Below, one piece after another: positions 15,001 through 21,000 of a stretch of DNA of 32,000 nt. Made by a program: the position numbers. This stretch comes from Vibrio cholerae ATCC 14035 (GTDB lineage: Bacteria; Pseudomonadota; Gammaproteobacteria; Enterobacterales; Vibrionaceae). The stretch covers positions 90,001 through 122,000 of the forward strand of contig NZ_JHXR01000015.1 of assembly GCF_000621645.1 (NCBI RefSeq), written 5' to 3'. Within the stretch, counting starts at the first letter, position 1, and each line of letters begins with the position of its first letter.

Positions 15001-18000
15001 CTCTTGATAGGTGTAGGTTTTCTGTTTAACCCATAATGCAGGGGCATGTCGGTTAGCCTGAATAGCCGCCAAAATAGAGTGTCTTGTCTCGCAGTACATC
15101 GCCATGTTATTGATAAATTGGTTATGCACGACACCATAACCCTCTCTCTGTAACAAATCTGTCGCAGAATTGTATGGCATTGTCAGCTACCGAGCGCCCG
15201 GCCTCCTTTCTATGGCGCGAAGGTCTACAACCTATAATTGCAACTAGTTGTCGAGCAACCGATTGACAATAGACATATCAAAATGGCGTTTCGTGGTGAT
15301 CGCGTAAAAGCTTTCGGTCACCGCGTCCAGTGTTCCGTAATTGCACAGCCTCCCTGTTTCAATTTCATCTTGTACCACGACCTCGGGCACCACAGTGACG
15401 CCTTCCACATCGCGCGCCAATAGACGCAACATCGCCATATCATCGACTTCAGCGTAGGGCGTTACCGCTAACCCTAACTGTTCACAATACAGATCAAATT
15501 GCAGCCGAATTTCACTGCTTGCCCCCGGCACCAAGGTTTTCACTTTAGGTAAATCCTGCGGAAATTGATAACGGCGCAAAGTGTCGCTCGGCGGTCCGAC
15601 AAGGCAGACACTTTGCTGTGCAATGCGCTTACAACGCCAAGGCTGCGTTGAGTCACTCGGTACCGGACGATTGGAAAGGATCAGGTCGAGCTTATGCATT
15701 TGTAACTGACCTAGAAGATCTTCCAAGGTAGAGGAAGACAAGATAAGCCGCACATCCGATTTACCGAGCACAGGGCGTAAAAAGTTTTCCTGAAAGTTTC
15801 GCGATAAGGTCGCCACCGAGCCAATCCTTAATTGCTGTACCCGTTGTAATTCACCGCTCTCCATGATCGAAAGCAGCTCGCCGCTCAAGTTAAATATGCT
15901 TTCGGCATATTCCAGAACCAAATGCCCAACTTCGGTGAGCTGCAAACTGCGCCCTTGGCGCACAAACAGATCATGCCCCAATTGACCTTCTAACTGACGA
16001 ATTTGTGAAGAAAGCGCCGATTGTGACACATTGAGTTGCTGCGCAGCACGAGTGAGATGCCCCTCTTTAGCCACAGTCCAGAAGTAATGTAAATGGTGAA
16101 AATTCAGATGTCGCATCGCTTTGTTCTCTTTTATAGAACGTTTTGTTAATAACAATATATTTTACTTACTCATTCCTTCGCAACCACAATAGCGCCACCG
16201 ATAACATCTTATTTTTCAATCAGGAGGCCGACCCATGTCGGAACTGTCACCCCAGTGGCTCCTTGTTAGTTTGTATCTTGGTGGCCTTGTATTGAGCTTA
16301 TGGTTACCTCAACAGCAGTGGCGTATCGCCAAGTTCGCCACTCTCGCCGGCTTCATCGCCATGCTTGGAAATACCCTTTTTGCGATAGGGCAAGCGAGCA
16401 TCAACCTAGTCCCAGTCGATGGATTAGGCATCGTGATGGCGATACTCGTCTCGCTCCTAGGCTGGGTGATAACCCGCTTCGCCCATCGTTATCTGCAAGG
16501 CGAAGCGCAGCAAGCGCGTTTTGTCACCGCCACGCTGTTTACCCTAAGCTGCGTAGCCTTGTTGGTCACCAGTCAGCATCTGCTTGTGATCGTGCTGGCG
16601 TGGAGCGGAACCAGCGTTGGCCTACATCGTCTCCTGACCTTTTACCCAGAGCGCAAAGCCGCACGCGTGGTGGCACACAAAAAATTCTTAGTCAGCCGTT
16701 TTGCCGAAATCTGTTTGTTGTTAGCGCTCGGTTTGATCTATCTCGATGTCGGTAGCTTGTCGCTACAAGAGATTCACTTCGCGTTAAACGCGCAGGATTC
16801 GCTGCCACTTAGCTTAACAGGGGCTGCGTTGTTACTCGCCTTCGCTGCTATCTTAAAAACCGCCCAGTTACCTCTGCACGGCTGGCTGATTCAGGTGATG
16901 GAAGCGCCAACGCCAGTCTCGGCGTTATTGCATGCGGGTGTGGTTAACATGGGGGGATTCGTTCTGCTGCGCGTCGCAGAACTGATTGGACTTGTTCCTT
17001 CGGCGCAATGGTTGCTGGTGATCGTCGGTAGCCTCACTGCGGTGCTCGCTGGCATGGTCATGCTGACTCGGATCAGCATTAAAGTTCGTTTAGCTTGGTC
17101 AACGTGCGCGCAAATGGGCTTTATGCTGATGGAAATCGGCTTAGGCTTATATGAGCTCGCCCTGCTCCATTTGGTGGCGCATTCACTTTATAAAGCTTAT
17201 GCCTTCCTAAGTTCTGGCGAAGCGGTGGAGCGAGCACGTCTGCATGATTTTCAAGCCCCACAAAGTGTCAATGGTAAAGCCGTGGGGGCTTTGCTCGCGG
17301 TAGGGCTCAGCGCAGCGCTTATCCTGATACTGCACCATTTATGGCAATCCTTAACACCCAATTTGCATCTACCCAATGCGGTGGTCGCGATTCTCGCCTT
17401 AGGTTTTGCTCCGCTACTTTGGCAAAGTGGACGTTTTACACCAAGTGGCTTGAGCCTCGGTGTGCTGCGGGTTGCCCTACTCACCCAACTCTATTTCGTA
17501 TGGCATCTGCTGTTTGCGGGTTTAGCACCCGAGCTGCGCCCCGCTAGCCCACTCGCGCTGAGCTTTGTGATGTTCTGTTTTATCACCTTGTATCTGATGC
17601 AAGTGCTGCTCTGCCTCTACCCCAAAAGCCGTTTATCACTGTGGCTCTATCCTTGGGTTTACCATGGTTTTTATCTTGATGAGACTTTTACGCGCCTGAC
17701 CTTCAAATATTGGCCCGTGCAATTAACTCTGCCTACCGCTCTTTCATCAACTCAAGCGCAACCGACGACAGGAGAACGCGTATGAATGCGCCACGTTCGC
17801 TCTCAGCTTTAAGCACCACCGCTAACCCAGCATTATCGACACTTGTCGAACAAGTCTGCGCCTTGATTGCTCCTAACTGGCCGCTGGATCGCATGATTGC
17901 GGTGAGCCCTTATTGGAAACGGATTGATAAGCCCTTTGCACAAGCCGCCGCCGAGCTCAAACAATTGGCCGCCTCCCCCATGACCATGACGCTCAGTGAT

Positions 18001-21000
18001 TACCACCTTCGTTGGCAAAATAAGCAAATCCAATCAGCGGATTTGCAACAAGCCATCGCTGAACAAAACAGTGACCTTAGCGAATCTACCTTGATTGCCG
18101 CTTTACAACAGCCCACAGCGCCGAGTCATCCTTGGCCATTGCTGTGCGACACCGTCGATAGCCGGCGTGATCTTGAGCATCATCCCGCATGGAATGACGC
18201 CATCACCCATCAAATTTCGCAATTTTGCGCCGCCTATTTTGACCATCATCAAGCCGATTGGAGCCCAGATCAGCAAACCGGACTCTTTGCCACTTGGCGT
18301 GAGGCGATGATCCACGATCGCAGCATTACGCTGCTGCTCAACGAGACAAGCGTAAAACAAAAAGCCACCAAGCTTCCCGAGGATGCTATGGCCGCCATCG
18401 AGCAAACTCTAGCGCAACTCGCTATTGCCCCTGCGCAACAAGAAACGTATTTACAAGCCGTGTTAATGCGCATCAGTGGCTGGGCATCCTGGTGTGCTTA
18501 TCTCGCATGGCAGGCAGGGTTTGAGGGTCGGCACGATGAGCACCTGCGCGATCTGTTGGCGATTCGTCTCTGCTGGGAGAACTTACTTGATGATGGTGAG
18601 CGCGGTATGGGCTCTGTGTGGTTACAATGGCAGCAATCTTGGGCACCGCGCCAATCGTGCGAGGAGGATCGCGCACTACGCATTGCGCTACTGTGGCAAC
18701 GCAGTGCGGAAATCGCCTATCAACGCCAACTTTTTGCTGCGCTGACATCAGCACAAGAGTCGGCTCCCCAATCAAGTTATCCCGAGGTGCAAGCGGCTTT
18801 TTGTATCGATGTGCGTTCAGAAGTCATTCGCCGCCACTTAGAAGCGCAATCACCCCATATTCAAACCCTTGGCTTCGCAGGCTTTTTTGGCTTACCGATC
18901 CGCTATCAGTTATTGGGCACCGAAGCAAGCCGCCCACAGTTACCGGGCTTATTAGCGCCGAGCTTGATCGTCTCTGACAGCACAGGGAATGAAGATCAAG
19001 ACGCGAAATTGGCCTTGCGTCGCCGTGCTCGACTCAAGCGACACTTTAGCTGGCGCGCGTTTCATCACCTCCCCGCCTCCACGTTTACTCTGGTGGAAAC
19101 CACGGGGTTGGCGTATTTAACCAAGCTCCTTAAACGCACCTTATCCTACCCTGCATTGAGTGCATCGGTGGAGCGTTTCGCCTTTACGGAACATGAGTGG
19201 CAGAGTGTCAAACCGCAATTCACGCGCGATCCACAGACGTTAGCGCAGCGTGCTCAAATGGCGGCCAACATTCTGCGAGCGTTGGGGATCGCCACCGAGC
19301 AAGCACGCTTGGTGCTACTCGTGGGGCACGGCTCACAGACGCAAAATAATCCGCAGCGTGCAGGGCTGGATTGTGGAGCCTGCTGCGGTCAAAGCGGCGA
19401 AGTCAACGCTCGCACGTTAGCAGCATTGCTAAATGATCAGGCGGTGCGCCAAGCGTTGCCTGAATATGGAATTTCGCTGCGCGATGACGTCCACTTTATC
19501 GCGGCGCTACACAACACCACGACAGAAGCGATGAGGCTTTTTGATCGCCATGAGATCCCAACAAGCCATCGCGAGGCGCTAGAACAACTTGATCAGCAGC
19601 TCACGGCCGCCAGCCATGGCGCACGTCAAGAACGCGCGCCAAGTCTTGAATTGAATCACAACCACCAAGCGCCTCCAAGCAAGGACAACGCCCTATCTGC
19701 CCAGCAGTTGGAGCAAGCGTTTCTGCGTCGAGCCCATGATTGGACGCAAACTCGCCCTGAATGGGGGCTGACCAACAATGCCGCTTTTATCATTGCACCG
19801 CGCCAACGTTCAAAGCAGGCGAAACTCGATGGTCGAGTGTTTTTGCATGAATACCAACCGGAGCGCGATCCCGAAGGGCAATTACTGACACAAATTATGA
19901 CAGCCCCAATGCTGGTCACACACTGGATTAACATGCAGTATTTTGCCTCCACCGTCGATAATCGCCGCTTCGGCAGTGGCAATAAAACCTTGCATAATGT
20001 GGTAGGAGGAAATATCGGTCTTTTTGAAGGCAACGGAGGCGATCTGCGCTGTGGCTTAGCCCTGCAATCGCTGCATGATGGCCAAGGGTGGCGACATGAA
20101 GCCTTACGTCTCACTGTGGTGATTGATGCGCCGCGCGAACGGATTGAGCAAGTGATGGCTTCACACCGCGTGGTTGAACATTTGGTTAAGCATGAATGGC
20201 TCTATCTGGCCCGTTTTGCTGATCAAGGGATTGAGATATATCTCCAAGGCACTTGGCAACGCATCACTCAGCCCAGCTCAGATTCCAGTGCGAGATAAAA
20301 TATTGTTGGCCATCTAGGATGGCCAACAATATTTAAAGCGTTTTATAAACCAATCACACCACATACGATGCGCGCACCACCGCCACCCAAAGGCATTGGA
20401 TGGTCGGAATGGTTATCCCCGCCCGCGTGGACCATCAAAGCTTTACCTTTTACCTCTGCCATTTTGAAGCGGGATGCCAAAACGGGTTGATTTGCTTGGC
20501 CTTGCGCATCCACGTACAAAGCTGGGAGATCACCCAAGTGATTGTCGTTGGTCCACGGATAGCCGTGTTTTCCCGTGTTTTGCGGATCATAATGCCCACC
20601 CGCAGCGCCACCTAATACGGTTTTGCCATCTTTGGACGAGGTTTCACATGAGCCATTCGCGTGTACATGAAAACCGTGCAAACCGGCTGGCAAGCCAGTT
20701 AACTGCGGAGTAAAGACCGTACCATACTCGCTATCAGTTAAGGTAACGGTGCCCACGGATTGGCCAGAGCTCAAATCCGTCATCACTACGGTCATTTCTT
20801 GCGCCAAAACCGAAGAAGAAAAAAACGCGGCGACCGCAAACAAAGTAAATTGATTCATGATGGATATCCTTATTGAGGGTTTGAGAGTAAGACACAGTTA
20901 GTTGAGAGGTCGTGATTGAGTGGAAGACGACACAGCCAATTTTTCTTGATGCAGCGCTTTTAACGTCTCAGATTGACCGTACAACTCAGCAAATTCTTGC

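Follow-up and report, generated by a model that had tools for sequence, protein, structure and literature searches.

A conserved divergent LysR gene and a predicted operator box accompany dabBA, the DAB-type inorganic-carbon system of Vibrio cholerae

Introduction

The closest described relative of the locus examined here, the dabBA gene pair (VC1581/VC1582) of Vibrio cholerae, is DAB2 of Halothiobacillus neapolitanus (structures 9rd0, 9rd8, and 9rd9; Desmarais et al. 2018/2019; Lo et al. 2026), with which it has the two-subunit architecture and the Pfam families in common. A DAB homologue rescues carbonic-anhydrase-free Escherichia coli, confers an uptake sensitive to carbonyl cyanide m-chlorophenylhydrazone (CCCP), and is non-functional when its zinc site is mutated (10.1101/476713), and DAB2 has been studied by cryo-electron microscopy (cryo-EM) and by mutagenesis of its proton path, with no sodium dependence (PMC13144422). 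We analyzed dabBA in a stretch of 32,000 nucleotides (nt) from V. cholerae ATCC 14035 (contig NZ_JHXR01000015.1, positions 90,001 to 122,000), hereafter called the window, and compared it with related loci.

Three other systems bear on the comparison. MpsAB of Staphylococcus aureus (Fan et al. 2019, PMC6689103), set beside dabBA by its description, also pairs a PF00361 protein with a PF10070 protein in a pathogen that is not autotrophic, and its membrane subunit is likewise the first to be encoded. It provides dissolved inorganic carbon and can be exchanged for carbonic anhydrase (PMC6689103). It differs in being proposed to be Na+ linked and to move bicarbonate, and its host is devoid of carbonic anhydrase; in V. 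cholerae, alpha and beta types are both present. DAC (dacM/dacC, Tcr_0853/0854 type) of the chemolithoautotrophs Hydrogenovibrio and Thiomicrospira belongs to this family too, under a different name; it can rescue carbonic-anhydrase-free E. coli, and it increases the intracellular pool of inorganic carbon. Unlike dabBA, it serves an autotrophic CO2-concentrating mechanism, and in H. crunogenus carbon limitation induces it more than 100-fold. The cyanobacterial CupA/CupB NDH-1 complexes likewise carry out vectorial, energy-coupled CO2 hydration on complex-I-type antiporter-like subunits (10.1101/476713), but their CO2-hydrating subunit is unrelated, and the complexes are embedded in a full NDH-1 and driven by electron transfer, so that the likeness is an analogy of mechanism and not a shared family.

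The V. cholerae pair is itself an already described DAB system and not a discovery of this work. Functional DABs of Bacillus anthracis and V. cholerae were reportedly presented by Desmarais et al. in 2019, the latter in carbonic-anhydrase-free E. coli. Since 2018-2019, the V. cholerae locus has been cited in the DAB preprint (10.1101/476713), in three MpsAB papers, and in the DAB2 structure paper (PMC13144422), and strain N16961 is listed as MpsAB positive with two carbonic anhydrases (Table 1 in PMC6689103). A preliminary description of the window, made from its sequence, had presented the family as unannotated until genetic screens in a chemoautotroph. The DAB identity that it proposed stands; Pfam and UniRef now carry DabA/DabB names (the UniRef name for the window's DabB is "Probable inorganic carbon transporter subunit DabB") and the locus is already in the literature. 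What we add is modest: the synteny of a LysR gene with dabBA, a conserved box between them, and the finding that the neighboring stress genes are not conserved partners.

Results

Family assignment of DabB and DabA

The two open reading frames (ORFs) have the lengths and the ATGA overlap that the preliminary description had claimed, as judged from the ORF coordinates and the bases themselves (Table 1). Each start codon is preceded, 7 nt to its 5′ side, by a Shine-Dalgarno-like sequence (AGGAGG for dabB and AGGAGA for dabA), and the mechanical ORF of dabA reaches farther 5′, to a TTG at 17710. The overlap supports the translational coupling of dabB and dabA that the preliminary description had proposed.

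Searches with profile hidden Markov models placed both proteins in the families anticipated for them (DUF2309 and PF00361), with scores far beyond chance. DabA matched PF10070, whose current Pfam name is "Probable inorganic carbon transporter subunit DabA," at 882 bits (cut-off, 25), with residues 22 to 807 covering the whole profile (positions 1 to 747 of 747). DabB, whose translation shows numerous hydrophobic segments in a hydropathy analysis, matched PF00361 at 136.6 bits (cut-off, 21.5) and PF00662 at 25.3 bits. Among structures in the PDB, DabA had a single match, the cryo-EM chain of H. neapolitanus DabA2 (9rd0_A; E = 3e-172, residues 18 to 826), to which it is 42% identical across 786 aligned residues. 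The top match of DabB was DabB2 of the same structure (9rd0_B; E = 2e-75), with 48% identity in the core. No NCBIfam model matched DabA. By these matches, the pair is a member of the DAB/DAC/MpsAB family of inorganic-carbon pumps. An exact-sequence look-up assigned both proteins, and the product of the divergent LysR gene (by name a V. cholerae/Vibrio LysR regulator), to V. cholerae, in agreement with the heterotrophic enteric pathogen of the preliminary description.

The names under which the genes circulate point elsewhere. In NCBI/GenBank, VC1581 is called "NADH-quinone oxidoreductase subunit L" and VC1582 "YbcC family protein," and as late as 2020, papers on V. cholerae physiology took vc1581-2 for a putative NADH dehydrogenase. 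Moreover, NCBIfam model NF006029 (PRK08168), which bears the label "NADH-quinone oxidoreductase subunit L," gave DabB a full-length match of 710 bits (cut-off, 380). Were these labels right, VC1581 would be the NuoL of an NADH dehydrogenase or a component of an Mrp-type cation/proton antiporter, and its neighbor would be an unrelated hypothetical protein. DabB does share with NuoL and MrpA the PF00361 antiporter-like fold and the Lys/His/Ser residues of the proton path. However, it falls far short of the models for genuine NuoL (NF005141, 205.5 bits against a cut-off of 556; TIGR01974, 198.8 against 407.5), it fails all Mrp models, MrpA included (best score, 146.3 bits against 937), and its similarity to E. 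coli NuoL (E = 9e-42) is confined to residues 51 to 331. Because the true NuoL, NDH-1, and Mrp models fail by such wide margins, NF006029 is probably a model of the DabB clade with a legacy NuoL name, which spreads the misleading label.

Gene context and published genetics argue in the same direction. ORFs of at least 100 amino acids in the window, without shadow-like embedded or overlapping ones, were assigned by Pfam or by the gene table of an identical contig, and among them there is no other Nuo or Mrp subunit; the NuoL-like gene is thus the orphan that it had been taken for. The only other respiratory genes in the window are a cytochrome bd oxidase pair (6366-8692, minus strand). The partner to which DabB is translationally coupled is a full-length DabA, and deletion of VC1581, alone or together with nqrF, left nitrate respiration unchanged, as is expected if VC1581 is not an NADH dehydrogenase. 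Context, model cut-offs, and genetics together effectively refute the NADH-dehydrogenase or Mrp reading, to which we give almost no credence.

Zinc site, tunnel, and proton path

Residues mutagenized in DAB2 were mapped onto DabA and DabB through HMMER alignments with DabA2 and DabB2, the lists of functional residues being taken from the 2026 cryo-EM paper (PMC13144422) and the 2018 preprint (10.1101/476713). Conservation was assessed in 64 DabA and 46 DabB relatives (median identity to the window's copy, 42 to 43%) from 74 related loci, which had been found in a scan of genomic contigs and belong to Gamma- and Betaproteobacteria, Acidobacteria, Planctomycetes, and others.

DabA2 residues C351, D353, H524, and C539 aligned exactly with C341, D343, H516, and C531 of DabA, the zinc-site residues that the preliminary description had picked out. 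Together with R345, E439, and L663, these residues are invariant in 64/64 relatives, and the invariance of the ligands indicates that the zinc site is conserved far above background. The CxD motif occurs once in DabA; H-x14-C occurs twice, at 134 and 516. Alanine mutants of DabA2 C351, D353, and R355 have lost function (10.1101/476713; PMC13144422). L663 corresponds to DabA2 L658, a leucine that replaces the canonical Gln/His of beta-carbonic anhydrases. The relay residues S346 and H577 are kept as well, and D590 is replaced by E582. Along the tunnel, F365, A366, F368, L622, R658, W661, H689, I705, A708, and P709 are all present, the sole change at the gate being V696 to L701. The region of the finger motif is amphipathic rather than strongly hydrophobic in the hydropathy analysis, and the DabA2 finger has been described as amphipathic likewise (PMC13144422).

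The membrane subunit showed the same picture. The window's DabB keeps 9 of the 11 residues that were mutated in DAB2, namely, the proton-path residues S229, H233, K283, S289, H312, H316, and K320 (S256, H260, K310, S316, H339, H343, and K347 in DabB2) and the ion-pair residues R155 and K208 (R182 and K235). All seven proton-path residues are invariant in 46/46 relatives, and the K208 column holds K in 41 and R in 5 of them. The two changes are non-disruptive: D185 is E158, and I151 is S124, which is still not the Glu found in NuoL. Overall, the mapped columns of both subunits are invariant, or close to it, among the 64 DabA and 46 DabB relatives.

The pair therefore shares with DAB2 the zinc ligands, the Asp-Arg dyad, the Leu in place of Gln/His, the tunnel-gate residues, the finger Glu, and the proton path of DabB. 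It differs in having dabB before dabA with a 4-nt overlap, in a DabB that is 35 residues shorter and has Ser for Ile at position 151 and Glu for D185, in a dedicated divergent NhaR-like LysR gene, and in its heterotrophic host, where there is no carboxysome or Rubisco context. By homology with DAB2, we consider it very probable that dabBA is the DAB operon of V. cholerae and that it acts by energy-coupled CO2 hydration and bicarbonate trapping.

These residues also bear on the main alternative, that the pair works in the manner proposed for MpsAB, as a Na+-coupled importer of bicarbonate (or CO2) driven by the sodium-motive force that V. cholerae maintains. Na+/HCO3− symport has been proposed for MpsAB, and E. 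coli deficient in Na+ transporters is complemented by MpsAB but not by DAB2 (PMC13144422). The gene order in the window, with the membrane subunit first, is that of mpsA-mpsB, and respiration in V. cholerae is built on Na+-NQR. On the other hand, all proton-transfer residues of DabB2 and the finger Glu of DabA are kept, and among solved structures the proton-coupled DAB2 is by a wide margin the closest. The zinc site and the hydrophobic residues of the CO2 tunnel are retained too, which argues for CO2 hydration over bicarbonate symport. Although the sequence alone cannot tell H+ from Na+ coupling, this balance makes a Na+-coupled importer an unlikely reading, and DAB2-like CO2 hydration is the one that we prefer.

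A divergent LysR gene and a conserved box

Upstream of dabB, across a spacer of 118 nt, lies a divergent gene for a LysR-family regulator; its mechanical ORF continues beyond the assigned ATG to a TTG at 16155. The top NCBIfam match of the protein is the NhaR model NF008284, over the full length (173.9 bits, E = 4e-51) but below the cut-off of 219. By this score, the regulator belongs to an NhaR-related clade and is not NhaR itself. Its closeness to the model of a Na+-responsive regulator, although below the cut-off, is a further point in favor of the Na+-coupled importer considered above.

Of the 61 loci that have enough flank, 47 carry a divergent LysR homologue (at least 40% identity) 5′ of dabB. 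In other Vibrio species, the regulator is 74 to 76% identical to that of the window, whereas the pump is only 49 to 57% identical (DabA, 49 to 55%). When all ORFs of the 74 loci were clustered, the widely shared clusters were those of DabA, DabB, and LysR only; the other large clusters were antisense shadow ORFs or lineage-restricted neighbors, and no other widely shared partner gene (mpsC-like, P-II-like, or carbonic anhydrase) was found.

The spacer contains a perfect inverted repeat, GTTCT-N7-AGAAC (Table 1), whose T-N11-A core is typical of LysR sites. At up to one mismatch, this is the only match in the window, and 30 of the 47 lysR-dabB spacers (counting that of the window) contain such a box, where shuffles predict 0.16. 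Across these spacers, the box lies nearly always 1 to 7 nt from the lysR ATG. We predict that it is the binding box of the LysR regulator, and its layout would fit a classical autoregulated, activator-dependent divergent LysR promoter. Among the papers searched, we found no description of a LysR operator for DAB operons. The synteny and the operator-like box support the earlier proposal that the regulator is dedicated to dabBA.

Promoter elements were less distinct. By eye, and among the closest relatives, two more AT-rich blocks are kept within 16150-16190, TATNTATTTTAC and a −10-like (A/C)AAAT. A weak sigma-70-like match that points toward lysR overlaps the former block (Table 1), and a scan of the region for promoters and terminators gave no more hits than shuffled sequence did.

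TABLE 1 Coordinates of the dabBA genes, their regulator, and the sites discussed in the text (positions within the window)
Feature	Position	Strand	Remarks
LysR-family regulator (VC1580 type)	15244..16116	-	290 aa from ATG 16116; PF00126 and PF03466 matches
Perfect inverted repeat GTTCTCTTTTATAGAAC (GTTCT-N7-AGAAC, T-N11-A core)	16123..16139	.	Predicted LysR box, 6 nt from lysR start codon
Sigma-70-like match TTGCGA, 18-nt spacer, TATATT	16154..16183	-	Weak; points to lysR; consensus 9/12; overlaps conserved TATNTATTTTAC block
dabB (VC1581)	16235..17785	+	516-aa polytopic membrane subunit, NuoL/MrpA-like, predicted proton/cation channel
ATGA stop/start overlap, dabB/dabA	17782..17785	+	dabB stop TGA shares bases with dabA ATG
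dabA (VC1582)	17782..20298	+	838 aa from ATG 17782; PF10070 full-profile match
Cys341-Ile-Asp343-Val-Arg345 codons	18802..18816	+	Zinc ligand and Asp-Arg dyad; align to DabA2 C351, D353, R355
Glu439 codon	19096..19098	+	Equivalent to DabA2 Glu444, membrane-inserted "finger" motif
His516 to Cys531 codons (H-x14-C)	19327..19374	+	Remaining two zinc ligands; align to DabA2 H524, C539

Distribution and origin of the pair

In 69 of the 74 loci, dabB lies directly 5′ of dabA, and the two genes overlap by 4 nt in 26 of these 69 and by 8 nt in 14; overlaps of this kind are typical for the family. The closest relatives that the scan returned, the V. cholerae locus itself not being among them, are only 55% identical and scattered over Vibrio, Oceanospirillum, Marinobacter, and Polaromonas, members of several orders. 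Furthermore, the G+C content of dabBA is 0.52 to 0.565, compared with 0.42 to 0.49 in the flanks (5 to 10 points above the almEFG and sodC-katB genes). Since the genes are richer in G+C and their closest returned relatives are both distant and taxonomically scattered, an old horizontal acquisition is suggested.

The same two features, along with the ordinary carbonic anhydrases of V. cholerae, would also suit a horizontally acquired passenger that is silent or decaying and has no present function. Against this stand two intact ORFs in which every catalytic and coupling residue is retained. The pair is also widespread in the species: the contig collection lists the identical DabA protein in 109 of its blocks, and DabA and DabB fall in a 90%-identity cluster of 2821 members, of which the named ones examined are all V. 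cholerae. In addition, the transcripts respond to conditions, with log2 changes of +2.7 and +2.0 for vc1581-2 in a mutant of the riboflavin-biosynthesis gene ribD and with a listing of vc1581-2 as mouse induced. A functionless passenger is therefore highly improbable, and the DAB2-like pump remains our reading of the locus.

Neighboring genes in the window

Convergent with dabA is an oxidative-stress cluster (20343-23231, minus strand) that comprises a Cu/Zn superoxide dismutase gene (sodC), an ankyrin-repeat gene, and a catalase gene; a scan of the 44-nt gap between dabA and sodC found no terminator-like site. The preliminary description had placed dabBA beside periplasmic stress genes. The adjacency is real, but a conserved partnership is not, since no SodC, Ank, or AlmE homologue occurs near the dab genes in any of the 74 related loci (0/74). 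Local adjacency is therefore no evidence of a functional link, and we rejected a link of dabBA to sodC, the ankyrin gene, the catalase gene, or almE.

On the other side, the dab regulator is adjoined by almE (13510-15180; AMP-binding, 556 aa) and almG (12516-13337; lipid A acyltransferase-like, 273 aa), both on the minus strand and both genes of the lipid A glycine-modification operon for polymyxin resistance. Between them, almF (VC1578; 13339-13526, minus strand), a gene for a small carrier protein, appears broken: one frame reads MKQAIENILIERLQTSIEGISSILSPK and then reaches a stop at 13445-13443, and a second frame reads ...YFIDIVAKVESQF...SEVGE to a stop at 13341-13339. No gene is called in this region of the identical contig, and a Pfam scan of the conceptual translation found no carrier-protein domain. 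A frameshifting 49-bp deletion in almF has been reported for the classical-biotype strains O395, 569B, and A103, which are polymyxin sensitive as a result (PMC12409358). Because the broken almF fits this deletion, the window may come from a classical-lineage V. cholerae.

Farther away, the window contains a MacAB/TolC-like tripartite ABC efflux system (684-6292), adjacent EAL and GGDEF cyclic-di-GMP genes (28721-30947), and two ORFs with no Pfam match (37-534, 165 aa; 9215-9595, 126 aa). An acetoin/butanediol cluster (24114-28483) encodes a LysR regulator (minus strand), acetolactate decarboxylase, a thiamine pyrophosphate-dependent acetolactate synthase, and a short-chain dehydrogenase. This pathway releases CO2, and we found no evidence tying it to the pump.

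Discussion

The conserved residues allow a DAB2-like cycle to be proposed for the V. cholerae pair. The NuoL-like DabB and the large cytoplasmic DabA, with its two beta-carbonic-anhydrase-like domains, would form a heterodimer, and CO2 that has diffused into the cell would reach the buried Cys-His-Cys zinc site of DabA. Hydration to bicarbonate would be allowed only along with an inward flow of cations, most likely protons, on a path that would run through DabB and be completed by the finger-motif glutamate of DabA. Because hydration is permitted only with inward proton flow, the reaction would be one-way, and the membrane potential would be spent to trap inorganic carbon as cytoplasmic bicarbonate. 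The most likely use of this bicarbonate is by biotin-dependent and anaplerotic carboxylases under CO2 scarcity, with the pump working beside the ordinary carbonic anhydrases, and the divergent NhaR-like LysR regulator probably controls expression through the GTTCT-N7-AGAAC box.

Several points weigh against this proposal. Purified DAB2 has no carbonic anhydrase activity in vitro (10.1101/476713; PMC13144422), so that even in the prototype the coupled mechanism has the status of a model. For the S. aureus homologue, MpsAB, Na+/bicarbonate symport has been argued (PMC13144422), and, given the Na+-based energetics of V. cholerae and the NhaR-like regulator, coupling to protons is not to be taken for granted. 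Because V. cholerae possesses carbonic anhydrases of the alpha and beta types as well (PMC6689103), dabBA may be dispensable. Finally, the published changes in vc1581-2 transcripts that we found come from the mouse model and the riboflavin-biosynthesis mutant, not from CO2 limitation.

A wider and frankly speculative idea, for which we see only a small chance, is that the lysR<>dabB-dabA triad and its box constitute a self-contained and horizontally mobile module of heterotrophs for sensing and supply, directed at inorganic carbon, sodium, or pH, which in V. cholerae could be Na+ coupled rather than H+ coupled and could control the cytoplasmic bicarbonate pool that activates ToxT. The only support for it consists of the NhaR-like regulator, the mouse induction of vc1581-2, and the sodium bioenergetics of the host. 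If true, the induction of virulence genes would be tied to envelope energetics and to the CO2 of the host.

As for annotation, VC1581/VC1582 should read as an energy-coupled CO2-trapping enzyme; as a putative NADH dehydrogenase, it had been deleted in a hunt for a respiratory phenotype. The conserved regulator and its box offer a handle for finding the signal that switches dabBA on, an increment on a known system. The question for the biology of the organism is why a heterotrophic gut pathogen with ordinary carbonic anhydrases keeps such a pump, and whether the pump sets the level of the bicarbonate that serves as a virulence cue.

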